The notes under the pieces are model-generated. The model made no database searches. It saw nothing but the letters and a program-made list of their open reading frames with translations, and was not told the DNA's origin. The translations under genes were made by a program, and so were the position numbers. A stretch of 64,000 nucleotides of DNA from Candidatus Pacebacteria bacterium CG2_30_36_39. GTDB taxonomy: Bacteria; Patescibacteriota; Microgenomatia; UBA1400; PJMF01. The stretch covers positions 239,538-303,537 of the forward strand of contig MNZB01000004.1 of assembly GCA_001873435.1 (NCBI GenBank), written 5' to 3'. Shown here piece after piece: positions 2,820-63,595 of the stretch (position 1 is the first letter of the stretch; each line of letters opens with the position of its first letter).

Positions 2820-2874
2820 AAGGGCAGTAATCTGTCTTTATTGTAGGCTGTTTCACCATAACTAACAAGAAAAA

Positions 2875-4563: not shown

Positions 4564-4640
4564 ATTATTTTTAATTATAAGAGTTGTCCTGGCAAACTTC
4601 CATTGCTAAAAATAAGTTTTCCCTGTATAATTCCAGATCT

Positions 4641-4955
4641 ATGCCTATCTTACACAATGCAAAAAAAGCCTTAAGAGTTAGTAAGAAAAAAACTACTCGC
4701 AATAAAGTTACTAAATCACGCACTAAATCTGCCGTGGATAAAGTCAAGAAAACTCCAACCATGGAATTCTTAGCTGCTGCTTACTCTGCTATCGATAAAG
4801 CCGTTAAGAAAAATATTTTTCATGCGAACAGAGCTGCTCGCTTGAAAACTCAATTAGCCAAACTAGTTAAGCCAGCTAAAATCGAAAAAAAAGTTGCTCC
4901 TAAAAAAGCCGTGAAAACTGCTCCTAAAAAAGCAACCAAAAAAGCTGCAAAGTAA
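4641..4955 (+). CDS. rpsT: 30S ribosomal protein S20 with a K/A-rich histone-H1-like C-terminal extension.
   Basis: 'MPILHNAKKALRVSKKKTTRNKVTKSRTKSAVDKVKK...FHANRAARLKTQLAKLV' matches the S20 consensus. The C-terminus is 'KPAKIEKKVAPKKAVKTAPKKATKKAAK'. The start is taken at the ATG at 4641, internal to track ORF 4584. Confidence 0.8.
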   Translation: MPILHNAKKALRVSKKKTTRNKVTKSRTKSAVDKVKKTPTMEFLAAAYSAIDKAVKKNIFHANRAARLKTQLAKLVKPAKIEKKVAPKKAVKTAPKKATKKAAK

Positions 4956-4967
4956 CAGCTTTTCACT

Positions 4968-6761
4968 ATGGTAACACCACTGTCCCAGATTCGAAACTTC
5001 TCGATCATCGCTCATATAGATCATGGTAAGACTACCCTAACTGATGCTTTTCTCCACGCCACCCATACTATTTCTGACTTAGAAACCAGAGAACGAGTTA
5101 TGGACTCCAATCCAATAGAACAAGAAAAGGGAGTTACTATTAAACTAGCTCCTGTTCGCATGGATTATAATTATCAAGGACAAGATTACGTTTTAAATCT
5201 CATTGATACTCCTGGCCATGTCGACTTTGGTTATGAAGTCAACAGATCTCTTGCTGCTTGTGAAGGAGCTCTTCTTTTAATTGACGCCACTCAAGGAGTT
5301 CAAGCTCAAACCTTAGCCAACTTTGAAAAAGCCAAAAACTTAGGTTTAAAAATCATTCCAGTGATCAATAAGATTGATTTACCATCTGCTGACATTGATC
5401 AAGTGATGTTGGAAATTATGGATTTGCTTGGAGCGGCAGAAAATGAAATTTATAAAACTTCTGCAAAAAATAATCTAGGTATAACAGAAGTATTAGCTGC
5501 AATTATTGAAAAAATTCCAGCTCCAGTTGGAGATGCAAATAAACCAGCCAAAGCTATGATTATTACCTCTTTATTTGATAATCACCAAGGTGGAATTGCC
5601 TACGTTCGCATCATGGATGGAACATTAATAAAAGCACCATCCTATTTGCTTTCCACAAAAACAGTTTTTCAACCAGTTGAAATTGGTGTTTTCAAACCAG
5701 AAAGACAAAAAAGAGATCAACTAACCGCTGGAGAAGTTGGTTATATTTCTACAGGACTTAAAGATATTTCCAATTTAAAAGTTGGTGATACTCTAACTCT
5801 TCAAAAAGATAAAGATTTAATTGAAAAAGTTCCTGGCTATAAAGAACCAACTCCAATGGTCTATATGGAACTTTATCCAATCGATGCTGATGATTTTCCA
5901 GCTTTAAAAGATGCTTTTGAAAAACTTTCTTTACATGACTCAGCCCTCAGAAGCAAACCAACCCACTCTGTCGCCCTTGGTAATGGACTAAGAGTTGGCT
6001 TTTTGGGAATTTTCCATGCTGAAATTGTTAGAGAACGTTTGAGCCGGGAATTTGATCTTGATTTAATTGCCACTGCTCCATCAGTTAGTTATCAACTTGA
6101 TACCAAACATCACGAAACAATTACAGTTAACAGTCCAGCAGAATTTCCTGATCCCAGTCTTATTGATGGTATTAGTGAACCAGTAGTAAAAGCAATGATT
6201 TTTACCCCAGAAAAATATGTGAGTTCTGTTTATAAATTAGCTAGAGAAAAACGTGGGATCTTAACTAATACTCAAAGCACTGGCACTAGAGTAAGACTAG
6301 AATATACAATTCCTTTAGCAGAATTAATTACAGATTTTCATGATCAATTAAAATCTGTAACTTCTGGATTTGCTTCACTTGAATATGAATTATCTGGCTA
6401 TCAAAAGGTCGATGCTATCAAAGTTGATATTGTAATTCATGGTGAACCAATAGAAGCTTTGAGTTTTGTTACTGTTAAAGATAAGGTTGATCAAAAAGGT
6501 CGAGATTTGGTTAAAAAACTCAAAGAGGTTGTTCCTCGTCAAATGTTTGAAGTACCAATTCAAGCTACTATTGGTGGCAAAGTAATTGCTCGAGAAACTA
6601 TTAAAGCTTATCGCAAGGATGTTACTGCCAAACTTTATGGTGGCGATGTTACTCGCCGTATGAAACTTTTGCGCAAACAAAGTCGCGGTAAGAAAAAAAT
6701 GAAATCTATTGGTAAGGTTGAACTCAATCAAGAAACTTTTTTGGCTGTTTTGAAAACCTAA
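4968..6761 (+). CDS. lepA: Elongation factor 4 (LepA).
   Basis: 'NFSIIAHIDHGKTTLTD' G1 motif, 'DTPGHVDF' G3 motif, and a 597-aa LepA-type C-terminal domain. Confidence 0.95.
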   Translation: MVTPLSQIRNFSIIAHIDHGKTTLTDAFLHATHTISDLETRERVMDSNPIEQEKGVTIKLAPVRMDYNYQGQDYVLNLIDTPGHVDFGYEVNRSLAACEGALLLIDATQGVQAQTLANFEKAKNLGLKIIPVINKIDLPSADIDQVMLEIMDLLGAAENEIYKTSAKNNLGITEVLAAIIEKIPAPVGDANKPAKAMIITSLFDNHQGGIAYVRIMDGTLIKAPSYLLSTKTVFQPVEIGVFKPERQKRDQLTAGEVGYISTGLKDISNLKVGDTLTLQKDKDLIEKVPGYKEPTPMVYMELYPIDADDFPALKDAFEKLSLHDSALRSKPTHSVALGNGLRVGFLGIFHAEIVRERLSREFDLDLIATAPSVSYQLDTKHHETITVNSPAEFPDPSLIDGISEPVVKAMIFTPEKYVSSVYKLAREKRGILTNTQSTGTRVRLEYTIPLAELITDFHDQLKSVTSGFASLEYELSGYQKVDAIKVDIVIHGEPIEALSFVTVKDKVDQKGRDLVKKLKEVVPRQMFEVPIQATIGGKVIARETIKAYRKDVTAKLYGGDVTRRMKLLRKQSRGKKKMKSIGKVELNQETFLAVLKT

Positions 6762-6807
6762 TAAATACCGAATTAATTATTTAATTATAATTACTCAATA
6801 AGAACAG

Positions 6808-6837
6808 AAAACCCCGCCGTAGCGGGGTTTTGTATTT
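6808..6837. terminator. Bidirectional intrinsic terminator between convergent lepA and the SurA-like gene.
   Basis: Hairpin aaaCCCCGC-cgta-GCGGGGttt flanked by an A-run and a T-run. Confidence 0.8.
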
Positions 6838-6849
6838 CGGTAAAAAATA

Positions 6850-7674
6850 TTATTTATTTGTAAGCTTAGTATCGTATTCTTTTAAATAAATAATCTTAGC
6901 TTCATCTTGCAAACCCTGCACCCAAGTTTGAATCTCTTGGTTGAGTTTTGAAGAATAAATTTGTTGTCTAACAGTTTCGCGGAATGATTCTGGATCAGAA
7001 TCAGCTGGAAAATAATCAGCATTGTCTTTAAGGTACTGTGAAATTTCATCATCAGTGACAACAACTTTGTCAGCAACAATTTTCTCTGCACTTTTTTGCA
7101 TCACAATATCTTCAATGAGAGCGGCTCTAGTCATACCCTGCTCTTGCAAGGCTGCATCAAGAGTTAAGCCTTGAGCCACAATTCTATCTTCAAGTTCTTT
7201 AATTGCTGCATCGATATCCACTTGATCAACTGTTACCTTGGATTTATCAATAGCTTGTCTTACTAGGGTTTCAACTATTAATGAGTCAAGAACTTGCTTA
7301 CCACCCTGCTCTTCTAATTTATTAATCATTGTCCAACGGTAAATAGGCTTACCATTTACCATAGCAACAACAACTTGATCTTTGGCTAAATAAACTACAC
7401 CCATAATCAATAAAGCACCAAGAACTAAAACAACATTTTTCTTCTTAGAAAAAAATTTCTGTACATTAATCAATGGATTGGCCATCTTCATCATTGGCTC
7501 TACTTTGGAAACAACAGTTTTGGTTACTGGTTTCTTAACAGTCTTAATTACTTTACTAACTTTTTTAGCTACTGGTTTTACAGCTGCTTTTGAAGGTATT
7601 TTTTTCATTTGTTTTTTTTCTGCTCCAGCGATCTTTTTTGTACGAGTTGGAGCTTTTTTGGTTGTTTTTGACAT
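6850..7674 (-). CDS. Membrane-anchored SurA-N-domain chaperone (PpiD/PrsA-like, no parvulin domain) with a lysine-rich N-terminal tail.
   Basis: The K-rich N-terminus is 'KKAPTRTKKIAGAEKKQMKKIPSKAAVKPVAKKVSK...', followed by one TM helix and a SurA_N-like helical chaperone region (…LIVETLVRQAIDKSKVTVDQVDIDAAIKELEDR…). Confidence 0.55.
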   Translation of the reverse strand: MSKTTKKAPTRTKKIAGAEKKQMKKIPSKAAVKPVAKKVSKVIKTVKKPVTKTVVSKVEPMMKMANPLINVQKFFSKKKNVVLVLGALLIMGVVYLAKDQVVVAMVNGKPIYRWTMINKLEEQGGKQVLDSLIVETLVRQAIDKSKVTVDQVDIDAAIKELEDRIVAQGLTLDAALQEQGMTRAALIEDIVMQKSAEKIVADKVVVTDDEISQYLKDNADYFPADSDPESFRETVRQQIYSSKLNQEIQTWVQGLQDEAKIIYLKEYDTKLTNK

Positions 7675-11240: not shown

Positions 11241-11358
11241 TTCTGGCCTCGACCTATCTTCGCGTCCCAACGAGGGGATACTATTGTCGGCGCTGAGGCG
11301 TTTCAAGACTCTGTTCGGGATGGGAAGAGTTGGTTCCACCTCGCTCCGGAGACCAGAA
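11241..11358 (-). rRNA. rrf: 5S rRNA.
   Basis: The reverse complement reads '...GGUGGAACCACUCUUCCCAUCCCGAACAGAGUCUUGAAACGCCUCAGCGCCGACAAUAGUAUCCCC...'. This matches the conserved 5S loop B/C/helix III-IV consensus, and the terminal helix UCUGGUCUC/GAGGCCAGA closes it. Confidence 0.85.
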
Positions 11359-11467
11359 TAAAACGCTTTTTGTTAATTTTAGGTTATGTTCCCTAAAAGG
11401 TGAAGAGAAATTGTCATCTGCCAGTAAAAAATTGAGAATTCATTTTTAACGCATCTTTATATACTAA

Positions 11468-14378
<2,911 letters not shown>

Positions 14379-14584
14379 AATTAGCGAAATTTGCATTTTT
14401 TTATAAATTCTCGACGAATTTACTATTAGATGACATATCTCTTCACTTTTTAAAGAACAATTCTAAACAAGAAGCTTCCGCTCCTTGTTGTTCGCCCCGA
14501 GTAGTCAAGATTTCTCTCAAAAACCCATGAACGAATAACAAAAAGCCGATCTTAGTTATTCTTGTTTATGTTAATTTGCTTCTG

Positions 14585-14658
14585 TGGACCCTAAGGGGCT
14601 CGAACCCTTGGCCTCTACATTGCAAATGTAGCGCTCTAGCCAACTGAGCTAAGGGCCC
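14585..14658 (-). tRNA. tRNA-Ala (anticodon UGC), immediately upstream of the 23S rRNA.
   Basis: The reverse complement is GGGCCCTTAGCTCAGTTGGCTAGAGCGCTACATTTGCAATGTAGAGGCCAAGGGTTCGAGCCCCTTAGGGTCCA. It forms a cloverleaf, the anticodon loop is TTTGCAA, and the Ala-identity G3:U70 pair is present. Confidence 0.9.
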
Positions 14659-14846: not shown

Positions 14847-15482
14847 TTATCTCCCTGGTAGAGCTATTGGTTTGAGACCAATTTTTTCTAAAATTTGCAA
14901 ATTCTTTTGAGCAATTTTTTCACCAAGACTACCATTCAAATCATAGAATAATGGTAATTCTCTTTTGGAAAGAGCTCGATAATATTCAATTTGAGGCATA
15001 ATTACTTCTTCAGCAACTTTTGGAGAAGCTGCGTGCAGCCAATCTGCAGAAATTTGAAAACAACCTAAATTGAAAATATTTTCTCCGCCACCGAGAGTAA
15101 AACAAATTTTATTGGCAATATGGACACCCTTTGGTCTTACCATATGACCTTTAATACCTTCTCCAAGTTTCTTTGGATCAGTAAAAGGAATAAAACCAAT
15201 AAAATCCAATTTTTCTCTATCAGCCAAAGCTTCAACTTGTTGTTGCATTGAGGCATCAGCTTGCTCAAAATCAGCTAACTTCAACTTTGTTTTCACCCAA
15301 TCATTTTCTTGGCTTGCAGCAATAGAAATCTTAGAGCCAAAGGTCTTCTTTAAAGCAACCACTGCTTTAGAAAATCCTGGCAATTCAAGTCCAGCCCCAG
15401 CAAAGGATAAACGAGTGCCTTCATTAATTTGAACGCCTTCATCTCCACAGGTGATAACATAAGAGGCTTGAGTATCTGTCAT
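14847..15482 (-). CDS. Hypothetical protein of 211 aa with no family recognised.
   Basis: Clean ORF with ordinary codon usage and no TM helix. Motifs present: 'GHMVRPKGVHIANKICFTLGGGENIFNLGCF'. Confidence 0.5.
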   Translation of the reverse strand: MTDTQASYVITCGDEGVQINEGTRLSFAGAGLELPGFSKAVVALKKTFGSKISIAASQENDWVKTKLKLADFEQADASMQQQVEALADREKLDFIGFIPFTDPKKLGEGIKGHMVRPKGVHIANKICFTLGGGENIFNLGCFQISADWLHAASPKVAEEVIMPQIEYYRALSKRELPLFYDLNGSLGEKIAQKNLQILEKIGLKPIALPGR

Positions 15483-15525
15483 AGAAGCCTTTCTTCCTAA
15501 GACCTATATAGTCATGGGCAAGGGA

Positions 15526-15744
15526 CTATTTTTCAGTACCTTCTTCTAAATGAGACATGGCTTGAATCGAGGCTAGATATTGATTCATATCATTTTCGAC
15601 TTTTTCCCAGTCTCCACCAGCTTCTCGGATTGCATTAAAAAGCAAATCCATATCTATTAAAAGTTGGTCATCGGTAACAATCATTCTTTGTTTTGCCATA
15701 GTTGTATTATACCATTTTCTAGAGAAAAAATTCGATGAAATCAA
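15526..15744 (-). CDS. Small hypothetical protein. The start is possibly at the internal ATG (MAKQRMIV...) near 15699.
   Basis: 72-aa ORF between the rpsA terminator and the 14847 gene. Confidence 0.35.
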   Translation of the reverse strand: MISSNFFSRKWYNTTMAKQRMIVTDDQLLIDMDLLFNAIREAGGDWEKVENDMNQYLASIQAMSHLEEGTEK

Positions 15745-15792
15745 TTTTTTTTAAAAACGAGCTCCTGTTCTCATTTGAGTAGGCAGGAGCTC
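15745..15792 (-). terminator. Intrinsic terminator/attenuator downstream of rpsA.
   Basis: 9-bp stem GAGCTCCTG...CAGGAGCTC at 15759-15792. On the minus-strand transcript it is followed by GTTTTTAAAAAAAA. Confidence 0.5.
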
Positions 15793-15832
15793 ATCTAAAT
15801 TTCTTTTACCGATTTTAACTCTAGTTAAAATC

Positions 15833-17089
15833 CTACTTATAGCCCATTGGAGCTTCAGTTAGCACGATACTTAAACTCATGCGACGTTGCTCTGGTACTA
15901 CATTCTCTACATTCACAGTAACATCTTCACCAACTTTTAGTTCTTTGTCAGCATCAAGCTTACTAGAGTGAATTAAACCATCAACCCCAGGCTCAACATT
16001 TACAAAAACACCAAAAGATTCAACTCTTGTTACTTTGCCAGTAAAGGTTGTTCCAACTGCATAACGATCACCAATGGTAATCCAAGGATCATTAATTAGT
16101 TGTTTGATAGAGAGATTAAGTTTATTGGTTTTTTCATCAATACCCAACACTTTAACCTTAATTCTGTCTCCTACGCTGTGATAATCCTTTGGATGATTAA
16201 CTTTTTCCCAACTGATTTCAGATATATGAACTAAACCTTCAACATAACCAATGTTAGAAGCTTTACCCTCTTTATCCTTTGATTCATCAACTGGAATTTC
16301 AACAGTTACAAATAAACCAAAGTGCATTACACCAGAGACTACACCTTCGTAGATTTCTCCAGATTTCACTTTGTCTAAAGCTTGATCTTTTTGAGCCAAC
16401 TCTTTGGCTTCACTTACGTGACGCTCAGAGAAGATCAAACGATTTTTTTCACGATCAACTTCAATTACTTTAACTTGAAAAGCTTCACCTTTGAGATTAT
16501 TAACTTTACCGACAAAATCTCGACCAAATTGACTGGAAGGTACAAAACCTCTCACTCCATTGACCACCACGATTAAGCCGCCTCGGTTAGTTTCAACACC
16601 TTTAGCATCAAGAATTTCTTCTTTTTCAAAAGCTTCTTCAAAATATTCCCATTTGGCATCAGAAGCTGCACCTCTTAATGAGAGCACTACCTGTCCACGG
16701 TCATTTTCTGAAGAAACAACTAAAGCAGAAACTTCATCACCTACATTAAGTTCTTTAATGAACTCTGAAGCGAAATCATATTCTTTTTCTGAAACAATAC
16801 CTTCGGTTTTTGCACCCAAATCAATTACTAAAGCTTTTTTGCTTTTAGCAGTAATTAAACCTTTAAGTGAATCACCTTTTTGAGGAACAACCAATTTGTA
16901 TTTAGAATCAGCCAACAAATCCTCCATAGTTTTTGGTTTTGTAGCTGCTTTTTCAACTTTTTTATCTTCTTTAACTTCAACAGTTTTTTCAACTTTTTCT
17001 TCTTGAATAACTTCAGCTGGCTTGTCTGCAACAGCCTCCGTTTTTTCAATTTTTTTATCTTCTTGTACTTTCTTTGTAGCCATACACAA
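15833..17089 (-). CDS. rpsA: 30S ribosomal protein S1 with a K/E-rich N-terminal extension.
   Basis: Repeated S1 OB-fold motifs (…GDEVSALVV…, …GEIYEGVVSGVMHFGLFVTVE…, …GTTFTGKVTRVESFGVFVNV…). The N-terminus is 'KKVQEDKKIEKTEAVADKPAEVIQEEKVEK...'. The start may be Met3 at 17083. Confidence 0.85.
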   Translation of the reverse strand: MCMATKKVQEDKKIEKTEAVADKPAEVIQEEKVEKTVEVKEDKKVEKAATKPKTMEDLLADSKYKLVVPQKGDSLKGLITAKSKKALVIDLGAKTEGIVSEKEYDFASEFIKELNVGDEVSALVVSSENDRGQVVLSLRGAASDAKWEYFEEAFEKEEILDAKGVETNRGGLIVVVNGVRGFVPSSQFGRDFVGKVNNLKGEAFQVKVIEVDREKNRLIFSERHVSEAKELAQKDQALDKVKSGEIYEGVVSGVMHFGLFVTVEIPVDESKDKEGKASNIGYVEGLVHISEISWEKVNHPKDYHSVGDRIKVKVLGIDEKTNKLNLSIKQLINDPWITIGDRYAVGTTFTGKVTRVESFGVFVNVEPGVDGLIHSSKLDADKELKVGEDVTVNVENVVPEQRRMSLSIVLTEAPMGYK

Positions 17090-43469: not shown

Positions 43470-44159
43470 ATGATAAATATCATTGATTCAGCCAATATCA
43501 CCAATAATAGCCAAGAAGGCTCTAAAGACAATCCTCCTCAAATTAAGCTCCCTGATGCCACTGGTGTTGCTTCAGCTCAATTTCAAAAAAAGTTTTCTGA
43601 AAAACCACAGAGAAAAGGCTTATCCAAATATTTAATTGCCGGAATTCTCTTGTTACTTTTGGCCATCGGAGGCGGAGCAAGTCTTTATTTAATGAGTATT
43701 AATCAAGACCTTAGACAACAAGCTGATCAAGGAGATTACACTAATCCAACTGATCCACCAGAAGAGCCTACAACTGCCCCGACCACTGCCCCAACTACTG
43801 AACCTACTGGCGAACCAACTACCGAACCTACAACTGAACCCACTGGTGAACCAACTACCGAACCTACGGGCGAACCAACGGATGGGCCAACTGGTGAACC
43901 TACCACTGAACCCACTGGTGAACCTACAACTGAACCAACCACAGATCCTGGAAACGGTGGTGGTGGAAGTAGCAGTTCTTCAAGTTCATCATCAAGTAGT
44001 ACGGCTGTTGTAAATATCAATAATGGAAGCACCACAATAAGAGTTCAACCAACTCTGCCTCCTCAATTGCCACAAACTGGACCAGAAGATTGGCTAAAAT
44101 ATTTACAAGTAGGCTTGGGAGCCTTAGGAGTTGGAGCCTTATTCCTACTCTTCTTATAA
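43470..44159 (+). CDS. Surface protein with an N-terminal TM + INQDLRQQA motif, a TEPTGEP tandem repeat, a poly-Ser run and a C-terminal LPQTG + hydrophobic tail.
   Basis: '...LYLMSINQDLRQQAD', (PTTEPTGE)n, 'GGGGSSSSSSSSSSSS', 'LPQTGPEDWLKYLQVGLGALGVGALFLLFL*'. Confidence 0.65.
   Translation: MINIIDSANITNNSQEGSKDNPPQIKLPDATGVASAQFQKKFSEKPQRKGLSKYLIAGILLLLLAIGGGASLYLMSINQDLRQQADQGDYTNPTDPPEEPTTAPTTAPTTEPTGEPTTEPTTEPTGEPTTEPTGEPTDGPTGEPTTEPTGEPTTEPTTDPGNGGGGSSSSSSSSSSSTAVVNINNGSTTIRVQPTLPPQLPQTGPEDWLKYLQVGLGALGVGALFLLFL
43765..43940 (+). repeat. In-frame imperfect tandem repeat (~24-nt unit) encoding the (P-T-T/G-E-P-T) linker.
   Basis: 'gaacctactggcgaaccaactaccgaacctacaactgaacccactggtgaaccaactaccgaacctacgggcgaacc...' recurs. 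Confidence 0.7.
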
Positions 44160-44180
44160 AACAATTAGAAATAAATTTAA

Positions 44181-44208
44181 AAGCCTAGCCAAAAGCTAGG
44201 CTTTTTTA
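44181..44208 (+). terminator. Intrinsic terminator after the 43470 gene.
   Basis: 9-bp stem AAGCCTAGC-caaaa-GCTAGGCTT followed by TTTTTT. Confidence 0.8.
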
Positions 44209-44295
44209 ATATTTTAACAATTAAAACCAAACTTTCACCGAAAAAACAAATAATCTCTCATTGACCAGCAAATAACAAAGGCTGTATTCTAGATA

Positions 44296-45384
44296 GTGAC
44301 TAGATTAACTAGTTACAGTTCTATGGATTTTAATCAACCAAATATTAGCAAAATCCAAGATAGACCAGAAGAAAATAAAAGTGACTCTGGTTTAATTTTT
44401 CGTCCAAAAAAACCAAACAACTCAAAGATATTTTTTGGTCTAATCTCCCTCTTCGTTTTGGCAGTTGGAGGTCTAGTTGGAACATACCTAATTGGCATTA
44501 ATCAAGACCTTAGACAACAAGCCGACTCTGGCACTTATGTTAATGGCCAATGTGAGCCAAATTACTGGTCAGTTAATGGCCAATGCGTTTTGGAAAACTG
44601 TGATGACTATGATAATGACGGAATTATTGTTTGTGGTGTTGGTCATGGAATTTGTACTGAAGATAGTCTTGGTGGAGATTGGTGTGACAATCCAAACACC
44701 ACCGATCATGTTGAAACATGCGGAGAAACAGGACAAATTCGCTGCCAATGTGGACCGGGAAGTGACCAAGGATATTGGGTAATTGGCTCTGGAACAGGTA
44801 GTTGTGACGATCTCTGTGAAGACGCCAATGTTATTTGTACTGACTGTCCACCAGAAGAGCCTCCAGAAATTACCAATCCTCCAGAAGAACCAACTGCAAC
44901 TCCTCCTATTACTATATATACTCCTACACCAACTCCTACTGTTAATCCTAGTATAACTATAACCCCTACCCCAACCACTCCTCCAGGCGTAACTCTGACT
45001 CCCACACCTACAACTCCAATTGGACCACAATGTCGCAATATTGAGATGTACAACACAACAGGAGGAACAAGTACAATAATGGAAGAAAATGACGACGCTG
45101 CTTTAGTGCCTAATCAAAGCTCTGTTAGATTCGTCTGTAGTAATTTTCAAGAGAATAATTTACCAACTGGTTACTTCTATGCCTTTAGAATCTTTGAGCC
45201 TTGCGGTAGTGAAAACCATGAGACTCCTCTAGAGTTTGTAAATGCAGAAGGAGAAAATGGCATTAGTTACAACATTGAACTCAGTGGAGACTATATGGCC
45301 CAATGCTCAGTTTGTACTGTTGATGATGCAGGAGATACTGTTTGTGACTGGGAAAGCTTAACACCACAAGAATGTGGAAACTAA
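44296..45384 (+). CDS. Cys-rich secreted/signal-anchored protein with the same INQDLRQQA post-TM motif and a P/T-rich linker.
   Basis: '...TYLIGINQDLRQQADSGTYVNGQCEPNYW...', many Cys, 'TPTPTPTVNPSITITPTPTTPPGVTLTPTPTTP'. Confidence 0.6.
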   Translation: MTRLTSYSSMDFNQPNISKIQDRPEENKSDSGLIFRPKKPNNSKIFFGLISLFVLAVGGLVGTYLIGINQDLRQQADSGTYVNGQCEPNYWSVNGQCVLENCDDYDNDGIIVCGVGHGICTEDSLGGDWCDNPNTTDHVETCGETGQIRCQCGPGSDQGYWVIGSGTGSCDDLCEDANVICTDCPPEEPPEITNPPEEPTATPPITIYTPTPTPTVNPSITITPTPTTPPGVTLTPTPTTPIGPQCRNIEMYNTTGGTSTIMEENDDAALVPNQSSVRFVCSNFQENNLPTGYFYAFRIFEPCGSENHETPLEFVNAEGENGISYNIELSGDYMAQCSVCTVDDAGDTVCDWESLTPQECGN

Positions 45385-45387
45385 AAA

Positions 45388-46374
45388 ATGACTGACTGGA
45401 ATAAAAAACCACTAGCTGAAATGCCAGAAACTGCAAAGAAAGAATCTTCTAGCGTGCCTCAGTTTTCTCAATCACCTATAAAAAAGAGTGATCCAAAGAA
45501 AACAATTTTTGCTATTTTAGGCCTAGTCTCATTCTTTATTCTCGGTGTTGCTGGTGTATTAATCTCTCAAAAACAATATTTAGACAAAAATGTTACTGCT
45601 CCCAATGCCCCAGGATCTCAACCAGCTGCTTATATAAACAAAGCTAGTTGTCATCTAACCTTTACAGTCGGAACACCAACAACAGTAGTCAAAACTGCTT
45701 GTGGATTTAGTCCTTGTGAAACTGATAACGACTGTATTGATGGTTTAAGCTGTGTTACTAGCTCTGGCGACTCTATCGGAGAAGGTGCAAAATACTGTTC
45801 TCAACCTGAATTTGAAGATGCCTGTATTCTTAATCCAGGAGTAGATGCTTGTTGTACCGAGCCAACTCCAGTGCCAGGAGAATGTGCTGCCGAATGTGTA
45901 AGCGATACTGACTGTGACACTGGTTTAACTTGTGTTGGACCGGAAGATGGGGCTAAGTTCTGTTCAGAGCCAGAATTTGAAGATGCCTGTATCAACAACC
46001 CAAGCTCTGAATCTTGTTGTACCGAGCCAACTCCAACCATAACTGGCAATCCAACTGCAACCCCGAATCCAACTACAACTCCTAACCCAACTAATCCTCC
46101 AGGCGGTGGAAGCTCATCTAGCTCAAGTTCTTCATCTAGTTCATCAGTTGTTGTAAATGTTGATAACAGCACTACTACAAACACCACTACTCAAAACACT
46201 ACAACAAAACCTGGAACTACCACAAAAACCACTACTCCAAAAACCACCACCAAAGGTGCTCAACCAGAATATCCAGAAGAACTTCCAAAAACTGGACCAG
46301 AAGAATGGCTACAATATCTCCAAGTTGGCCTAGGCGCACTAGGAGTTGGAGCCTTATTACTGCTCTTCTTATAA
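45388..46374 (+). CDS. Cys-rich surface protein with an internal ~50-aa duplicated Cys module, a poly-Ser run and a C-terminal LPKTG + hydrophobic tail.
   Basis: N-terminal TM helix. The duplicated module is '...GAKYCSQPEFEDACILNPGVDACCTEPTP' / 'GAKFCSEPEFEDACINNPSSESCCTEPTP'. 'GGGSSSSSSSSSSSS'. C-terminus 'LPKTGPEEWLQYLQVGLGALGVGALLLLFL*'. Confidence 0.65.
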   Translation: MTDWNKKPLAEMPETAKKESSSVPQFSQSPIKKSDPKKTIFAILGLVSFFILGVAGVLISQKQYLDKNVTAPNAPGSQPAAYINKASCHLTFTVGTPTTVVKTACGFSPCETDNDCIDGLSCVTSSGDSIGEGAKYCSQPEFEDACILNPGVDACCTEPTPVPGECAAECVSDTDCDTGLTCVGPEDGAKFCSEPEFEDACINNPSSESCCTEPTPTITGNPTATPNPTTTPNPTNPPGGGSSSSSSSSSSSSVVVNVDNSTTTNTTTQNTTTKPGTTTKTTTPKTTTKGAQPEYPEELPKTGPEEWLQYLQVGLGALGVGALLLLFL

Positions 46375-46449
46375 ACAAACTATTCTCTAGAAATTGATTA
46401 AAACCAGGTTATAATAAGAAATCTTATTGAAAGTATTTAATAGGAAAAT

Positions 46450-46522
46450 GCGTGCGTAGCTCAATCGGCAGAGCTCCAAGCTTATACCTTGGTGGTTCTA
46501 GGTTCAAGTCCTAGCGCACGCA
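46450..46522 (+). tRNA. tRNA with anticodon UAU (tRNA-Ile(UAU)-type, decoding AUA).
   Basis: GCGTGCGTAGCTCAATCGGCAGAGCTCCAAGCTTATACCTTGGTGGTTCTAGGTTCAAGTCCTAGCGCACGCA folds as a canonical cloverleaf: acceptor stem 7 bp, D stem 4 bp, anticodon stem CCAAG/CTTGG with loop C-U-UAU-A-C, T stem 5 bp with TTCAAGT. CCA is not encoded. Confidence 0.8.
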
Positions 46523-46563
46523 CCCAAAGTAATTTAAAAGACTATAATTTAAAACGAATAAAT

Positions 46564-47610
46564 ATGAAAAAAATAATTAAAAAACTCTCAAATCCCTTGA
46601 TTAACTTATGGAAAACTAAAAAATGGTTAGTTATAGGTATTGTTATTTTATTACTAATAGCTGGAAATAATTTCTATAAACAAGCAAAAAATAAAACAGT
46701 TTTATCCTTTGTTCATCCTAGTATTCAAACTATTACAAAAACCCTAGACGTATCTGGAATCATTGATGCTAAAGAAAAAGCCAACCTACATTTTGCAGCT
46801 GGTGGAAAATTAATTTATTTGGGAGCAAAAGAAGGCAGTTGGGTAAAAAAGTGGCAAAACATCGCCACTATTGACCAACGAGCTGCTGTTAAAACCCAAG
46901 AAAAATCCCTCAATAACTATGCAAAAGAAAGATTGGATTGGGACCAACGCCAAAGCGACATTGGAGATGGAACCACGGTAGATGAAGAATTAAAAAGAAC
47001 CATTGATAAAGAACAATATGACCTCAATAATTCAGTATTAGATGTCGAGCTTTCTGCCATATCAACTACCAACAACACAATGTCTGCTCCATTTGAAGGC
47101 ATTTTAGTAAGCAGCCCAACAACTGTTACTGGAATTCAACTATCAGCCACAGATTCTTTTTTACTTGTAAATCCAAAAACATTAACCTTTAAAGCTTTAG
47201 TAGATGAATCTGACATTGCCTTAATTGCTCAAAACCAAACAGCAACATTAGAATTTGATGCTTATCCAAATGAAAAGCTACAAAGTTTTGTAAACTATAT
47301 CTCATTCCAAAGCGTTCCATCCTCAAGTGGAACTGCTTTTATTGTTGAATTACCAGTAGAAGCTAGTGATTTAAATAAGTTTCGCTTGGGCATGAACGGT
47401 GACGCCAAAATTGAACTAGAAACAAAACAAAATGTTTTAACTATTCCAGTGGTTGCTGTTAAAGAACGAGATGGTAAAGCATATGTTGAAATTAAAACTG
47501 GTAAAAATACTGCTGAAGAAAAAGAAATCTCAGTTGGCCTAGAAACAGATGACTACATTGAAGTCATTGGTGGCCTAACTGAAAATGATGAAATAGTGGT
47601 ACCAGAATAA
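46564..47610 (+). CDS. Efflux-pump periplasmic adaptor (HlyD/MacA family).
   Basis: The internal ATG in the track frame gives MKKIIKKLSNPL. The upstream part of track ORF 46489 overlaps the tRNA. One TM helix then a beta-barrel/lipoyl adaptor pattern. Confidence 0.75.
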   Translation: MKKIIKKLSNPLINLWKTKKWLVIGIVILLLIAGNNFYKQAKNKTVLSFVHPSIQTITKTLDVSGIIDAKEKANLHFAAGGKLIYLGAKEGSWVKKWQNIATIDQRAAVKTQEKSLNNYAKERLDWDQRQSDIGDGTTVDEELKRTIDKEQYDLNNSVLDVELSAISTTNNTMSAPFEGILVSSPTTVTGIQLSATDSFLLVNPKTLTFKALVDESDIALIAQNQTATLEFDAYPNEKLQSFVNYISFQSVPSSSGTAFIVELPVEASDLNKFRLGMNGDAKIELETKQNVLTIPVVAVKERDGKAYVEIKTGKNTAEEKEISVGLETDDYIEVIGGLTENDEIVVPE

Positions 47611-47625
47611 CCAGTCTAAAAAAAT

Positions 47626-48318
47626 ATGCCACGTAAAAATGCCAACATCGTGCTCGAGCTTCAAGATGTAACCAAGGAATATTTAATTGGTTCTCAAAAA
47701 ATTCATGCTTTGAACGGGATTTCTCTCAAAGTCAGAGAAGGAGATTTTTTATCTGTCATGGGACCGTCTGGATCTGGAAAGTCAACATTTTTACAGGTAG
47801 CTAGTATCCTGGCCACAGTTAGTTCTGGAAAAATACTAATTAATGGCAAAGACACCTCAAAATATGACGAAGTAGCCCGTGCTCACTTAAGAAACAAAGA
47901 AATTGGCTTTATTTTTCAAAACTTCAACCTGCTCCCCAAAACCTCAGCCTTAGAAAATGTTGCTTTACCATTGGTATATGCCGGCATAGATGAAGCTACT
48001 AGGTTGGAAATGGCAAAAGATATGTTGGAAAAAGTTGGACTTGGAGATAGGCTGCATAACACCCCAGCTCAGTTATCTGGAGGCCAACAACAAAGAGTGG
48101 CCGTGGCCAGAGCTTTAATCAACAACCCCGCTATTATTTTTGCTGATGAGCCAACTGGAAATTTAGATTCAAAATCTGGCAAGGAAGTTGAAAAAATCCT
48201 TGGAAAATTAAGCAAAGAAGGCAAAACCATTATTATGGTTACCCACGAACCAACTATTGCAAAAATAGCCACCTCGCACATCGAGATTCACGATGGAAAG
48301 ATCAAACATGAATCTTAA
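47626..48318 (+). CDS. ABC transporter ATP-binding protein (MacB/LolD-type).
   Basis: Walker A 'GPSGSGKST', signature 'LSGGQQQRVAVARAL', Walker B 'IIFADEPTGNLD'. Confidence 0.9.
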   Translation: MPRKNANIVLELQDVTKEYLIGSQKIHALNGISLKVREGDFLSVMGPSGSGKSTFLQVASILATVSSGKILINGKDTSKYDEVARAHLRNKEIGFIFQNFNLLPKTSALENVALPLVYAGIDEATRLEMAKDMLEKVGLGDRLHNTPAQLSGGQQQRVAVARALINNPAIIFADEPTGNLDSKSGKEVEKILGKLSKEGKTIIMVTHEPTIAKIATSHIEIHDGKIKHES

Positions 48319-49516
48319 AAGCACCTTTCTTGTCGCTATCAAAGCCATCATGGTCAATAAAGGCCGATCTTTTTTAACTATGCTTGGCGTCATCATTGGA
48401 GTTTCATCCGTAGTTCTTCTAACCTCAATTGGCACTGGTTTACAAGCCTATGTAACACAACAATTTGAAGAGCTAGGCTCCAACAATGTAATTGTCTTTC
48501 CTGGAGATATCTTTGGCGAAGGAGGTGGATTTAGTCGAGAATCACAATCAAATGCTCTATTAAATAACAAACTAAAACTTAGTGATGTAAATGATATTGA
48601 AAAACTTCGTGAATACGTGGAGTTTGCTCTACCAATGAACACAAGATCTGATAAAGCCTCATATAGGGATGAAACAAAAACTATTACCGTGATAGGCACA
48701 CACTATCAATATGATAAGTTCATCACTGGCATAGAGAAAGGCCGTTTTTTCAATAAAACAGAAGACCAAAGCGCAGAAAGAGTTGTTGTCTTAGGCTGGG
48801 AAATAGCCGATAAACTTTTTGGCAAAATAGATCCAATCGGGAAAAAAATTAAGCTCGGAACTCAAACCTTCAAAGTCGTTGGTGTTGCTGAAAAACAAGG
48901 CGGTGGTTTTGGAGGACCTTCTTTTGACACTTATGTCTATATGCCTTTGGAAACTAATTTTAGAATCTATGATACAAACCAAATTGTTGAAATCATGGTT
49001 AGAGTTAGAAACAAAGATCAAATGCCAGAAGCAATTAAGGCTATTGAACAAACAATGGGTAAAAGACTCAAAGATGATGAATTCAGTGTTTTTGATCAAA
49101 CAGAAATCTTAAATACCATTAATAGTATTTTGGGAGTTTTAACTGCTGGACTTGGTGGTATCGCTGCAATTTCCTTAGTAGTTGGAGGTATTGGCATTAT
49201 GAATATTATGTTGGTCTCAGTCACAGAAAGAACTAGAGAAATTGGACTTAGAAAAGCTCTAGGAGCTACTCCAAAACAAATATTGTTTCAATTTTTAATT
49301 GAATCTGCTCTGCTATCAATTCTTGGAGGCTTAATTGGACTTTTAATAGCTTATCTCGGATCGCTAGCCCTACAAGCAGTTTTCCCTGCAAAAGTTACTA
49401 TGGGAGCAATTATGCTGGCTTTTAGTGTTTCGGCACTAGTTGGTGTAATCTTTGGGGTTGCTCCTGCAAGAAAAGCAGCTAATCTCTCCCCAATCGAGGC
49501 TTTGCGCTACGAATAA
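48308..49516 (+). CDS. FtsX-like ABC permease (MacB-type).
   Basis: 4 TM helices with a large extracytoplasmic loop between TM1 and TM2. C-terminal 'GIMNIMLVSVTERTREIGLRKALGA'. The start is at the internal ATG 48308. The track starts at 48293. Confidence 0.8.
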   Translation: MNLKSTFLVAIKAIMVNKGRSFLTMLGVIIGVSSVVLLTSIGTGLQAYVTQQFEELGSNNVIVFPGDIFGEGGGFSRESQSNALLNNKLKLSDVNDIEKLREYVEFALPMNTRSDKASYRDETKTITVIGTHYQYDKFITGIEKGRFFNKTEDQSAERVVVLGWEIADKLFGKIDPIGKKIKLGTQTFKVVGVAEKQGGGFGGPSFDTYVYMPLETNFRIYDTNQIVEIMVRVRNKDQMPEAIKAIEQTMGKRLKDDEFSVFDQTEILNTINSILGVLTAGLGGIAAISLVVGGIGIMNIMLVSVTERTREIGLRKALGATPKQILFQFLIESALLSILGGLIGLLIAYLGSLALQAVFPAKVTMGAIMLAFSVSALVGVIFGVAPARKAANLSPIEALRYE

Positions 49517-52654: not shown

Positions 52655-54991
52655 TTATAACCTAGCTCTTACCTGAATCTCAGCTTCCACCACTTCTCTA
52701 TCCTTACCGTATTTGAGTCTAGAAAGTTGTTTCACCATTTCCGCAAGCTTTGGATTCATACGAGCCTTAACAGCATCCATATCTTTTTCTAAAGACATAC
52801 TGAAGGCTGGAACAGGCTCATTATTAACAATAGTTTTAATATATACATGGAATTTCTCAACATTTGTTAAGTCATTTTCAGTGAATGTTGGAGTAAATTC
52901 ATGTTGCAAGAAATTTGCATCTGTCACGCCAACACGGAAAGAAACTATAGTTCCAACGTTACCAAAAACAGCATTCTTAACTTCTTCATCTATCTGACCA
53001 ATAAACTGATTAGCAACAATCAAATTCAACTTATATTTACGGGCCTCAGAAAGAATGGTAGCAAAATCCTCAGTAGCATAGTTTTGAAACTCATCTACAT
53101 ATAAGAAAAAGTCAGTACGTTGATCCATAGGAATATCCTGGCGACTCATGGCAGCAGTTAAAACCTTAGGCACTAAAATCAAACCCAAAAACTTAGCATC
53201 TTCTTCTCCCAAAATACCTTTGGATAAGTTACATAAGATAATTTTCTTTTCATCCATTGCTTTGCGGAAATTAAAAGCACTATAAGGCTGACCGATAATA
53301 TTACGCATTGTCTTATTCGTAACAAATCTACCAAACTTAGAAACAATGTAATCTAAAACTTCTGATTTATGAAAGTCACTTGTTTGAGCCATTTGATCAG
53401 TCCAGTAGCGTTTGACCACTGGGTCTTTAACAAAGGGCAAAAGTTCTTCAACAAACTTTTGATCAGTTAAAGCACGCACTAATTCGATAAAAGTAGTTCC
53501 TTCACGGGACATAATCGTTAACATAGCATTACGAATTGCATGTTCAAAACGGGGACCAATAATACCAGTACGATGTGGATCATAAAGCTTATACATCAAG
53601 CCAATAACAGAACTAACCACAAAATGGCGCTGCTCTTCGCTATCAGCTTCCATCATGTTTAAGCCCATAGGTCTAGTTAAATCTGAAGGATTAAAATAAA
53701 TAATATCTTCTGCTCTCTCTGGTGGAACTAGCTGTAAAATATCTTCCACAAACTCGCCATGAGGATCAATGGCGCAAACTCCTTGGCCATTTTCAATATC
53801 CTGCATAATCATTTCTTTTAGAAACTCGGATTTACCAGTACCAGTCTTACCAATGATATACATATGGCGCTGACGATCTTTAAGATTCATATAGACATTG
53901 CGAATATCACCGCGGTAGATAGATTTACCCAAAAACAATCCTTTGGTAGGAATTAAATTTGGAGCCGGAGCGTTTTTGGCTGTTAACCATTTAATATGAT
54001 GAGTTTCAACTGTTTTATTTGGGAAATGGAATATTGTTGCCAATTCCTCAGTGTTCAAAATACAGGTACCAAAATTAAATAAGGGCATATATCGATAAAT
54101 AAAATCAATCATGAAAAGATGTTTAATAAAAAACCAAGGTTTTTTAAACTCATTGTAGGCAGAAGAAAACTGAGCAAATGCTCCAGTTAGATTACTCAAA
54201 TGAGAATCAGCATCAACATCCTTTGGCGAAGAAACAACCATTCTAATTGAAACGCGGAAACCTGGTTTCTCAACCTTGGTTGTGATTGCTTCCATTTCTT
54301 TTGGATCATGACCGTAGGTAGCTTTTTGAGGATCAGCCTCTCTCTTTTTCTCGTTTTTAATGTAATTTCTACCTTTTTTCTGCCAACCATTACCTTCTGG
54401 ATAAATTAAGATTTGTAAAATAGCTCCATCACCATCCCCCATCTTAGAGAAACCAGAAGTAATTAAAGAAAGACCATCTGTTGGCAAATCTTTGTAGGTT
54501 TTAATTGGCAAATAGTTGGCTTGTTTAAATTTCAAAGAAGTAAAGGCAACTCGACCTTTTTCATTAAAAATATTTACCTCATCCTGTTCCTTAATATCTG
54601 CAAATGGATAAGCTCCATGAATTTGTTTCTCAACCAAATCTCTAATCCTTTTTGTACAACTAACATAAAAAGAGATTTCTTCCTTTAAGCCAACAATTTC
54701 AAAACTAATTAATTCTTCTGGCTGTAAAAATGAAAATAGACCATATTTTTTTAATGAGTGTAATCCAGCAAACATCTGTTCTGCTGCATCGATTTTAATT
54801 TCATTGTCCTTTGGAAGACGAACCAAGAGGGTGACAAAGTCTAGAGAATAGTCTTCTCGCTTTCTATGCTTAAACCACTGGAAAAATGTATATCCCAAAA
54901 AGGATAGGGCAATTAATAGAATAATTACTAGAAAAAAATTCATGAAAAACAACGAGGCTTGAGTAATAAAGTTGGCTGAACCAAAGGTCAC
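52655..54991 (-). CDS. Type IV coupling-protein-like P-loop ATPase (VirD4/TraG/TraD family-like).
   Basis: N-terminal TM helix. Walker A 'IIGKTGTGKS' is followed by 'AIDPHGE'. The C-terminal 'YVDEFQNYATEDFATILSEARKYKLNLIVANQFIGQI' is a Walker B/T4CP-type block. 778 aa. Confidence 0.65.
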   Translation of the reverse strand: MTFGSANFITQASLFFMNFFLVIILLIALSFLGYTFFQWFKHRKREDYSLDFVTLLVRLPKDNEIKIDAAEQMFAGLHSLKKYGLFSFLQPEELISFEIVGLKEEISFYVSCTKRIRDLVEKQIHGAYPFADIKEQDEVNIFNEKGRVAFTSLKFKQANYLPIKTYKDLPTDGLSLITSGFSKMGDGDGAILQILIYPEGNGWQKKGRNYIKNEKKREADPQKATYGHDPKEMEAITTKVEKPGFRVSIRMVVSSPKDVDADSHLSNLTGAFAQFSSAYNEFKKPWFFIKHLFMIDFIYRYMPLFNFGTCILNTEELATIFHFPNKTVETHHIKWLTAKNAPAPNLIPTKGLFLGKSIYRGDIRNVYMNLKDRQRHMYIIGKTGTGKSEFLKEMIMQDIENGQGVCAIDPHGEFVEDILQLVPPERAEDIIYFNPSDLTRPMGLNMMEADSEEQRHFVVSSVIGLMYKLYDPHRTGIIGPRFEHAIRNAMLTIMSREGTTFIELVRALTDQKFVEELLPFVKDPVVKRYWTDQMAQTSDFHKSEVLDYIVSKFGRFVTNKTMRNIIGQPYSAFNFRKAMDEKKIILCNLSKGILGEEDAKFLGLILVPKVLTAAMSRQDIPMDQRTDFFLYVDEFQNYATEDFATILSEARKYKLNLIVANQFIGQIDEEVKNAVFGNVGTIVSFRVGVTDANFLQHEFTPTFTENDLTNVEKFHVYIKTIVNNEPVPAFSMSLEKDMDAVKARMNPKLAEMVKQLSRLKYGKDREVVEAEIQVRARL

Positions 54992-61807: not shown

Positions 61808-63595
61808 TTAAACCAAGTGAGTTATTGTTTCTAATTCACTTTGTTGTGTTGCTTGAATAACATTTTTATCGTCTCTAAAACGAACTAATCTTGGAAATCT
61901 TAGTGCCTTGCCGGCGGAGTGGATTGGCGACTTAGTAATTTCATCAGCAGCAATTTCAACAATTAAAGATGGCTCTACCCAAACGTCTGGAACTAGATTT
62001 TTGTGTACCAAATATGCTTGAGGCTTATTTTTAACAATCAAAGAATCAGTTCTTTTTTTAAATTCACCAAATTGAACATCTGTTAAACCAGTGCCAACTT
62101 TGGCTACTGTTAAAATTTCACCGTTATCAGCTACAACCCCAACAAGAAAAGCCCCCAAACCAAAATCTACCCGCTTGCCTTTACCCTTGTAATAACCCAT
62201 TACAACACAATCCAACGTATCATTAAGCTTTCCTTGAGATCCTTCTTCTTCTTTAATTTTGACCCAACGCCAACCCTTACGACCACTTTTGTATAAAGAG
62301 TCTTGTTTTTTCATCACAGCGCCCTCTAGTCCTTGGACCAACTGCTCTTCATGAAATTCTTTTAATTCTTGAGGGTCTGAGGTAATAATATATGGAGTAG
62401 GAATAAAAATTTCTGCCCCATTGGTAATCTGACGTAATAAGTCTTTTCGATAATTTAGAGGTTCATCCAAGAGTGATCTTCCATCTTTTTCTAAAACATC
62501 AAAAACATAAAAATGAGCTGGAATTTCAGCGGCTTTTTCATCAACCCCATGTTTTCTTCTTCTAGTAGAAGTCTCCTGAAAAGGAAGAATTTCTCCAGTA
62601 ACTTTATCTATTCCAACAATTTCTCCATCTAAAATGCAACTTTTACAATTTAGTTCAGAAAGAGCTCTTTTTAATTCTGGAAACATATGAGATGTTTCCT
62701 CAAGATTTCTTGTAAAAGATCTTACTAATTTAGTTTCTTTATCGACATGAATTTGAATACGCAAACCATCATATTTTGGTTCAGCAATAACAGTTTGCAT
62801 TTTTTCGATAATTTCGTGAGTAGAGTTTAAACGCTGACAAAGAGCTGGAATAACCGGAATTCCTAAGCTTGCTTGATATTTTGCCATTAGTTCATCGTTG
62901 GATTTTGTTCCTTTTAAATACATCTGTGCCAAAATTCCCAAGTCGGCTTTGCGTTGAAATAGTTCTTCCAAAAAAGAAGCATCACTCTTATCACCTCTTT
63001 TTACCCAAGATAAAGCATCTATTATTGTCATTGTTGAAAAACCCAAACGAAGTTTTCCAATAACCATTCTTGCGATGAAACGAGCCGACAAAGCATCAAC
63101 TTGCTGCATTAATTTTAATAATTGAGAAACTTTTCTATCCTGAGATCCAGCTCCCCCCTCTAAAGCAATTTTTTTCAAAGCCTCAAAGGTTTCCAATAAA
63201 CTAAGCTTAATTTCTCTTTGGGTATTGGTGTTGGCAAATACTTGCTGAGTTGTTTCACCTATATCACCTGTTTTTTTATAAATTTCATCTACTTTTTTTT
63301 CATATAAACCATCGTCTGCCTCTGAAAACAAATTGCTGACTGGCAAACCATCTCCAAATTTTTCGGGGTTCTGTACCATTTGCTGGACTAAAACGCGTAA
63401 TACCATTTTTGATGATAGCTGAAATTCTAAAGATAAATATTCTGGGGTTAATCTGCCAAGTAATAAATAAATACTAAGGGGAATTTCTTCAAAATTTAAT
63501 TGATTAAATAATCGAGCCAACTGCTCAGTCATTTCCAAACGAGATGGAGTTTTTTCTAGTTTTTGCAAATATAAAGAAAAGTCAGTAATCAACAT
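61808..63595 (-). CDS. ATP-dependent DNA ligase (Lig1/archaeal-eukaryal type, with an N-terminal DNA-binding domain).
   Basis: 'AEPKYDGLRIQIHV' is motif I KxDG. Adenylation and OB domains are present, 595 aa. No Ku/LigD polymerase or nuclease domains. Confidence 0.85.
   Translation of the reverse strand: MLITDFSLYLQKLEKTPSRLEMTEQLARLFNQLNFEEIPLSIYLLLGRLTPEYLSLEFQLSSKMVLRVLVQQMVQNPEKFGDGLPVSNLFSEADDGLYEKKVDEIYKKTGDIGETTQQVFANTNTQREIKLSLLETFEALKKIALEGGAGSQDRKVSQLLKLMQQVDALSARFIARMVIGKLRLGFSTMTIIDALSWVKRGDKSDASFLEELFQRKADLGILAQMYLKGTKSNDELMAKYQASLGIPVIPALCQRLNSTHEIIEKMQTVIAEPKYDGLRIQIHVDKETKLVRSFTRNLEETSHMFPELKRALSELNCKSCILDGEIVGIDKVTGEILPFQETSTRRRKHGVDEKAAEIPAHFYVFDVLEKDGRSLLDEPLNYRKDLLRQITNGAEIFIPTPYIITSDPQELKEFHEEQLVQGLEGAVMKKQDSLYKSGRKGWRWVKIKEEEGSQGKLNDTLDCVVMGYYKGKGKRVDFGLGAFLVGVVADNGEILTVAKVGTGLTDVQFGEFKKRTDSLIVKNKPQAYLVHKNLVPDVWVEPSLIVEIAADEITKSPIHSAGKALRFPRLVRFRDDKNVIQATQQSELETITHLV

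Follow-up and report, generated by a model that had tools for sequence, protein, structure and literature searches.

The window analysed here, a 64,000-nt stretch with about 33% GC from a groundwater Candidatus Pacebacteria bacterium of the CPR/Patescibacteria (Minisyncoccota at NCBI), carries a tRNA gene with a genomically encoded UAU anticodon. We consider it most likely, with a probability of about 0.77, that the product is a functional tRNA-Ile whose unedited UAU pairs with AUA and which serves as the only AUA decoder of this bacterium, in place of tRNA-Ile2(CAU) and TilS. The comparative data indicate that much of the CPR normally has a UAU tRNA-Ile and that the gene in the window is an ordinary housekeeping tRNA of its lineage.

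Structure and surroundings of the tRNA gene

The tRNA gene (Table 1) has the sequence GCGTGCGTAGCTCAATCGGCAGAGCTCCAAGCTTATACCTTGGTGGTTCTAGGTTCAAGTCCTAGCGCACGCA. ARAGORN called it as tRNA-Ile(tat), and the Rfam model RF00005 matched the 73 nt over its full length (model positions 1-71) with 70.1 bits (E 2.9e-13, gathering score 29) and with no non-canonical pair flagged. An earlier note had read a clean cloverleaf with a genomically encoded UAU and the loop C-U-U-A-U-A-C from the letters of this DNA, and both programs agree with it; the preference of a covariance model for another fold or anticodon, which the note had named as a possible refutation, was not observed. The acceptor stem is GCGUGCG/CGCACGC, the D stem GCUC/GAGC, the anticodon stem CCAAG/CUUGG and the T stem CUAGG/CCUAG with the T loop UUCAAGU; the variable loop has 5 nt and the discriminator A73 lies at position 46522. 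Besides a score above the gathering threshold, the gene has the conserved tRNA positions U8, A14, G18G19, U33, G53-U54-U55-C56 and A58. T34-A35-T36 is encoded in a 7-nt loop with U33 and A37, as in the Mycoplasma mobile type. Position 34, which is C in the gene of a lysidine-type tRNA, is T in all eight assemblies containing the locus and in the whole family described below. Features of a suppressor or pseudo-tRNA were not found, as UAU reads a sense codon, each of the 21 pairs is canonical and no invariant position has been lost.

Table 1. Features of the window and their coordinates (position 1 is the first letter of the window).
Feature	Position	Strand	Basis
tRNA-Ala(UGC)-23S-5S rRNA locus	11241-14658	-	
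Protein genes directly 5' of tRNA-Ala	14847-17089		
Glycan-synthesis cluster	17831-41813		
PT-repeat protein and two ORFs without Pfam match, directly 5' of the tRNA	43470-46374	+	
Candidate promoter TAGAAA-16 nt-TATAAT	46388..46415	+	consensus scan, 10/12 matches
tRNA-Ile(UAU) gene, 73 nt, class I	46450..46522	+	ARAGORN, Rfam RF00005, homologue covariation
tRNA-Ile(tat) as called by ARAGORN	46449-46526		ARAGORN
Anticodon loop C32-U33-U34-A35-U36-A37-C38	46481..46487	+	read from sequence
Anticodon UAU	46483-46485	+	read from sequence
HlyD-like / ABC ATPase / MacB-FtsX efflux operon	46564..49516	+	Pfam; context, not part of tRNA function
TraD/VirD4-like coupling ATPase (DUF87, TrwB_AAD_bind)	52655-54991	-	
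Archaeal/eukaryotic-type ATP-dependent DNA ligase	61808-63595	-	

The 3' trailer is CCCA, so that CCA is not encoded directly after A73. The longer coordinates given by ARAGORN result from an extra U:A pair that makes CCA readable; the corresponding 8-bp acceptor stem was dropped, since the 7-bp stem is backed by the covariance model and by 103 homologues. The minimum free energy fold of the single sequence was an imperfect cloverleaf (z -2.87), as is usual for tRNAs, and the fold was settled as a cloverleaf by the covariance model and the comparative data. Eight loci from independent assemblies in ENA, JGI and NCBI, GCA_002772855.1 and GCA_009992265.1 among them, have the 73 nt unchanged, and an error of assembly or sequencing is thereby ruled out. 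The gene is thus real and canonical and looks in working order. A candidate promoter, recognized by its consensus match, lies about 35 nt 5' of the mature tRNA end; the 500-nt region scanned has five such promoter-like sites, compared to 1.6 expected.

Among the other features of the window, the rRNA locus consists of tRNA-Ala(UGC), 23S and 5S only, and the window has neither a 16S rRNA nor a tRNA-Ile(GAU). As protein genes and no 16S follow directly 5' of tRNA-Ala, the 16S gene is unlinked from 23S-5S. The glycan-synthesis cluster (GC 28-32%) includes two Wzy_C polymerase-like proteins, several glycosyltransferases, WecG and an epimerase, together with a NodU-like carbamoyltransferase, a B12-binding radical SAM enzyme, an Orn/DAP decarboxylase and methyltransferases. 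The LepA of the window occurs in unchanged form on groundwater metagenome contigs of up to 469 kb, and NCBI assigns this protein to 'Candidatus Pacebacteria bacterium'. The flanks contain the CPR-typical families DUF5654, DUF5657, DUF5667 and T4SS_pilin, and five tandem T4SS_pilin (PF18895) genes and LeuRS are located just past the end of the window (flank L132, 2563-4739).

AUA codons and the lysidine system

In 54 ORFs with 18,428 codons, AUA occurred 345 times, corresponding to 18.7 per 1000 codons and 22% of the Ile codons, which is about the frequency of AUG. The expectation that AUA would be frequent in this AT-rich genome was therefore right, and the value ranks as 'high' on the scale of PMC12514573. 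The meaning of AUA was analysed by aligning the three genes 3' of the tRNA (HlyD/ABC/MacB) with the orthologous genes of five related genomes. In these alignments, AUA codons faced I (58%), V (20%) and L (10%), with M outside the seven commonest residues. This profile resembles that of AUU/AUC and is unlike the AUG columns, where M reaches 51%, and hence AUA stands for isoleucine in this genome; as in the M. mobile type, it is in use with the meaning Ile.

These columns bear on the idea that the tRNA carries an amino acid other than Ile, such as Met if AUA had been reassigned as it is in many mitochondria, or that it is a non-translational tRNA-like RNA. Changes of the code do occur in some CPR classes, namely of UGA in Gracilibacteria and Absconditabacteria. 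The I/V/L profile with essentially no M, indistinguishable from AUU/AUC, argues against a reassignment, as do the identity elements of the tRNA: A35, U36, A37 and A73 fit the IleRS identity rules (Nureki 1994, as given in PMC3575796), and MetRS requires C34 (PMC3919564). We regard this explanation as highly improbable, the least probable of those considered here.

For the preferred reading, a tRNA-Ile decoding AUA, we propose by analogy that an IleRS adapted to U34 would charge the tRNA with Ile via A35, U36, A37 and the invariant A73. The E. coli enzyme recognises A35, U36, t6A37, A38 and A73 and accepts UAU poorly (PMC3575796). On the ribosome, U34 would read A much better than G, so that AUA would be read and misreading of AUG limited, and competition from tRNA-Met would limit the latter further, as in M. 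mobile and in a B. subtilis suppressor. The C32/C38 pair may tune the anticodon loop or match the IleRS of the lineage.

Genes of the lysidine system were searched for at several levels. No tilS, no ileS and no CAU tRNA were found in the window and flanks, which together cover about 95 kb of a genome of roughly 1 Mb, and the only tRNAs that ARAGORN detected in the window were tRNA-Ala(UGC) and tRNA-Ile(UAU). With TilS and IleRS of E. coli as queries, tblastn returned LeuRS only from the window, the flanks and CPR loci totalling 0.87 Mb, where about one gene of each was expected by chance. There was no ORF with an SGGxDS PP-loop in 0.97 Mb of CPR DNA, in which about one tilS is expected by chance, and no tilS 5' of ftsH in those 27 CPR loci whose sequence upstream of ftsH spans 1.5 kb or more, the genes at this position being those for TrpRS, oligoendopeptidase F, EF-P and others. 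The 17 CAU tRNAs located near UAU genes in GTDB loci among the matches listed (see below) look like fMet or elongator Met tRNAs.

The tRNA counts of 95 complete Patescibacteria genomes ('Table 2' sheet in supplementary file 2 of PMC13011429) gave a broader view. Ile and lysidine are not discussed and anticodons not listed in that source; ARAGORN labels tRNAs by their anticodon, so that 'Ile' stands for GAT or TAT and 'Met' for CAT. The genomes form two near-exclusive types, having either two Ile-anticodon and two CAU tRNAs or one and three, respectively. At least two Ile and at most two CAT tRNAs are present in 12 of 12 Microgenomatia, the class of the window's organism, and at least two Ile and exactly two CAT in 14 of 20 Paceibacteria. 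The combination (2,2) was found in 7 of 7 Dojkabacteria, in Doudnabacteria, UBA1384 and WWE3, and in 2 of 5 Gracilibacteria. All seven JAEDAM01 genomes have one Ile and three or more CAT tRNAs, Kazan-3B-28 has (1,3), and the 36 Saccharimonadia all have at least three CAT tRNAs, mostly as (1,3). Since fMet and Met need two CAU tRNAs, genomes of the first type have no Ile2(CAU) and therefore no substrate for TilS. Their second 'Ile' tRNA is presumably TAT, which the GTDB scan supports.

In view of the one or two CAU tRNAs in complete genomes of the same class, lysidine-independent decoding is the best reading of the different AUA-decoding strategy that the earlier note had postulated, and tilS and tRNA-Ile2(CAU) are presumably absent from this genome. 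Alternatively, Ile2(CAU) and TilS could be kept, with the UAU tRNA as a redundant decoder that adds capacity for the frequent AUA codons. Lactobacillus plantarum/casei, Cyanothece and Ferrimonas are reported to have both systems (Taniguchi et al., PMC3575796), and some Patescibacteria also appear to carry both, as (2,3) counts were found for two ABY1 and seven Saccharimonadia genomes. For the window's organism we consider redundancy unlikely, because none of the 12 complete Microgenomatia exceeds the two CAT tRNAs that fMet and Met require, neither a CAU tRNA nor tilS was found in the window or the flanks, and the CAU tRNAs near UAU genes resemble initiator or elongator Met tRNAs.

Distribution, gene neighbourhood and the C32/C38 loop

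The exact 73-mer had no match in the GTDB species genomes; evidently, the GTDB species representative differs at the locus or lacks it. A pattern restricted to D arm, CTTATA and T loop, with position 38 left free, gave at least 120 matches in these genomes. Among the matches listed, 101 of 120 are CPR-labelled by record title, 7 are unnamed and 12 have other labels, and ARAGORN called tRNA-Ile(tat) in 117 of the 120 loci. The CPR-labelled records among them span more than 15 candidate phyla, including Kaiser-, Nomura-, Vogel-, Wolfe- (complete genome CP011209.1), Collier-, Woese-, Beckwith- and Pacebacteria (one record, L139), as well as Dojka/WS6, WWE3, Kuenen-, Gracilibacteria and others. 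The statement that a UAU tRNA-Ile is uncommon thus applies to cultured bacteria, where it replaces Ile2(CAU) in 17 of 4036 genomes (PMC8450103), and fails for this phylum, in which it is the common state.

Several of the 12 records with other labels are surely mislabelled. Four records titled 'uncultured Pseudomonadales bacterium' (L156, L203, L221 and L238) have the tRNA(UAU)-HlyD-ABC-MacB order with 46-66% protein identity to the window, and in view of this shared gene order and protein identity with a Pacebacteria sequence the label is almost certainly wrong. Many TPA labels 'uncultured Candidatus Saccharibacteria' may be generic Patescibacteria labels, since every complete Saccharimonadia genome carries three or more CAU tRNAs and a second Ile-anticodon tRNA is missing from 29 of the 36. 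The pattern formed by D arm and T arm is not CPR-specific, as most contigs matched by its CAU version were non-CPR, and phages often contain a shorter pattern of D arm and anticodon in which position 34 is C or T. Phage tRNA arrays contain a 94-96-nt tRNA called Ile(tat) with a CTTATAC loop and a long extra arm (36 loci among L004-L123 listed, for example L005, L007, L012, L017 and L022). The extra arm forms a hairpin with a covarying stem (ACGG/CCGT, GCAC/GTGC) and a loop with the conserved sequence CAGATTA; such a class-II-like form is unusual for an Ile tRNA.

An alignment of the 103 unique sequences from the GTDB matches listed showed that the tRNA is under strong structural selection across many CPR classes. 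Canonical pairs were present in 99.8% of the cloverleaf cells, compared to 69% after column shuffling and 35-46% with slid partners. Compensatory double changes were observed in 15 of 21 pairs, the other six being fixed by the search pattern. U8, A9, G46 and A73 (the latter in 103/103), all outside the search pattern, were invariant, and C38, which was free in the pattern, was present in 99 of the 103 sequences. A comparison of isotypes by nearest neighbour placed CAU and GAU tRNAs closest; this result was set aside because the references had been gathered with a pattern selecting the same D arm and YAU anticodons, which biased the reference set.

C32/C38 was found in 102 of 106 CPR tRNA(UAU) sequences compared to 0 of 45 tRNAs of other kinds encoded in these CPR loci, and truly non-CPR matches (Streptomyces, Phycisphaerae, Bacteroidales, Lachnospiraceae) have A38 or U38. 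Judged from these sequences, C32/C38 is a family signature of the CPR tRNA(UAU). It is no marker of the UAU strategy as such, since it also occurs in lysidine-type Ile2(CAU) tRNAs beside tilS in other lineages. A metagenome scan for the CAU version with C38 gave 90 matches, from which 87 tRNAs were extracted, the best sharing 59 of 73 positions with the CPR family. We rejected these matches as ancestral CPR Ile2(CAU) tRNAs, as the dominant group was the lysidine-type Ile2 beside tilS in other lineages. It comes from compact non-CPR AUA-decoding clusters with genes for type-2 IleRS, tRNA-Ile2(CAU) with the loop CTCATAC (C32/C38), TilS, hpt and ftsH. One such cluster (L286) has the order tRNA (384-456), tilS (467-1846), hpt (1830-2381) and ftsH (2378-4177), and another (L341) has ileS (4071-7241) and the tRNA (7382-7454) followed by tilS and ftsH; further loci of this kind are L264, L265, L272, L276, L277, L280, L299, L302, L304, L328 and L334. 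The best 120 relatives of the L286 TilS listed bear names such as '[bacterium]', Firmicutes or Dehalococcoidia and are uninformative for the CPR. In high-GC metagenome contigs, the C38 Ile2(CAU) additionally lies beside the gene for a type-2 IleRS whose C-terminus is DUF5915, so that C38 may accompany IleRS enzymes with no requirement for A38. This is an indirect hint as to the type of IleRS in the window's lineage.

The order tRNA(UAU)-HlyD-ABC-MacB recurs in five related genomes (L203, L221, L156, L238 and L148) with proteins 46-65% identical to those of the window. The tRNAs of these genomes agree with the window's at 47-49 of 73 positions, and they have kept the CUUAUAC loop while diverging by compensatory changes. 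Among the matches listed, ftsH lies within the same 8-kb block in 73 of 117 UAU loci; the tRNA(UAU) is located 3' of ftsH in 67 loci, in 41 of them at a distance of at most 1 kb. Examples are L218 (ftsH 1160-2950, tRNA 3104-3176), L177, L232 and L227, the latter being Wolfebacteria CP011209.1. The cluster tilS-hpt-ftsH is conserved in many bacteria, and clusters of this type were seen in L286 and L341. The window's own clade has no linkage of ftsH and tRNA(UAU), and the tRNA gene appears to have moved there to the site 5' of the efflux operon. Gene order and ftsH linkage together appear to favour ancient vertical inheritance in the CPR over repeated acquisition.

The region directly 5' of the tRNA has a GC content of 38% compared to about 31% nearby. 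In four other assemblies, both NCBI MAGs among them, the contigs stop about 500 bp 5' of the tRNA, and in one assembly the 328-aa ORF of this region is 383 aa long. The region looks strain-variable. With the TraD/VirD4-like ATPase 6 kb away, this setting could suggest that the tRNA was recently acquired from a mobile element or phage, or is a decaying pseudo-tRNA, and has no core role in translation; among the 123 pattern matches contained in the first 120 viral records listed, 59 were UAU tRNAs. However, the nearest viral UAU tRNA among the matches listed agrees at only 53 of 73 positions, the gene order at the locus has been kept while the proteins diverged to 46-65% identity and the tRNAs by compensatory changes, the family is phylum-wide and ftsH-linked, and the intact pairs and universal positions speak against decay. 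We thus judge a recent acquisition or decay very improbable.

Beyond this genome, it is conceivable, though we hold it with somewhat less than even confidence, that most CPR classes lack lysidine and share one ancient tRNA-Ile(UAU), in which the C32/C38 loop is an adaptation keeping U34 off AUG. Such an adaptation might act via tuning of the loop, a type-2-like IleRS, a modification of U34 or a CPR-specific property of the ribosome. If the CPR were indeed lysidine-free, the view that lysidine is used by almost all bacteria would have to be revised, and AUA/AUG discrimination by uridine could be studied in the CPR as a natural system. To our knowledge, AUA/AUG is the sole purine pair of the genetic code split between two amino acids. 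The comparative data indicate that the simpler UAU solution prevails in an entire radiation of uncultured bacteria, with C32/C38, A73 and the ftsH linkage as a testable conserved signature. For annotation, this means that tilS and Ile2-type CAU tRNAs are not to be expected in such MAGs and that completeness checks may mislead. It also bears on the evolution of AUA decoding and on antibiotic ideas that treat TilS as universally essential.

Comparison with known AUA-decoding systems

UAU-type AUA decoding itself is already known as the Mycoplasma mobile type. Textbooks and recent papers nevertheless describe lysidine as the solution of nearly all bacteria, and tilS is reported in about 98% of annotated genomes (PMC12514573). 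Nine species without tilS (PMC3575796) and TAT genes in 19 species (PMC4013482) have been reported, besides 371 unassigned TAT tRNA genes in metagenomes (Taniguchi et al., PMC3575796). The search of the open-access literature, to which our survey was confined, found no link between lysidine, tilS or tRNA-Ile(UAU) and the CPR. What might be new to specialists is the spread of the UAU tRNA through the phylum, together with its C32/C38 signature and its linkage to ftsH.

Like tRNA-Ile2(CAU), the tRNA described here would be a dedicated AUA decoder beside tRNA-Ile(GAU), and its body is similar, with 8-nt D loop variants, a GGUUCRANUCC T arm, A37 and A73. Unlike in tRNA-Ile2(CAU), the gene encodes U34 instead of C34, and consequently neither lysidine nor a switch between MetRS and IleRS identity is needed. 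Archaeal (Nanoarchaeum, Korarchaeum) and eukaryotic tRNA-Ile(UAU) also have UAU in the gene and do without an agmatidine or lysidine enzyme, but belong to other domains. Eukaryotic tRNA-Ile(UAU) has pseudouridine at positions 34 and 36.

In Bifidobacterium and Neorickettsia, tRNA-Ile(UAU) is present instead of Ile2(CAU), tilS has been lost and the IleRS is reportedly of the type-2, eukaryote/archaeal-like form (PMC3575796; PMC8450103). In a suppressor of a Bacillus subtilis tilS deletion, tRNA1-Ile(G34U), U34 is unmodified, AUA is read and AUG is bound weakly (PMC3919564), so that the U34 mechanism is viable in a bacterium. This suppressor is a laboratory mutant of tRNA-Ile(GAU), whereas the CPR tRNA is natural, anciently conserved and encoded by a dedicated gene. 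In the tRNA-Ile2(UAU) of M. mobile, U34 is likewise unmodified and AUG is rejected only on the species' own ribosome (Taniguchi et al. 2013, PMC3575796). With U34 unmodified in both bacterial cases studied (PMC3575796, PMC3919564), the special U34 modification requirement that the earlier note had derived from the anticodon does not follow. The IleRS of M. mobile accepts UAU through Arg865, where E. coli has Trp905 (PMC3575796).

M. mobile is the closest parallel in that a bacterial UAU tRNA reads AUA in a reduced and AT-rich genome, with Ile2(CAU) and TilS replaced in M. mobile and presumably also here. There, the change is recent, confined to one genus and experimentally shown, whereas here a family known from its sequences extends over many CPR classes. 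In contrast to M. mobile, this CPR family has an almost invariant C32/C38 loop and is linked to ftsH.
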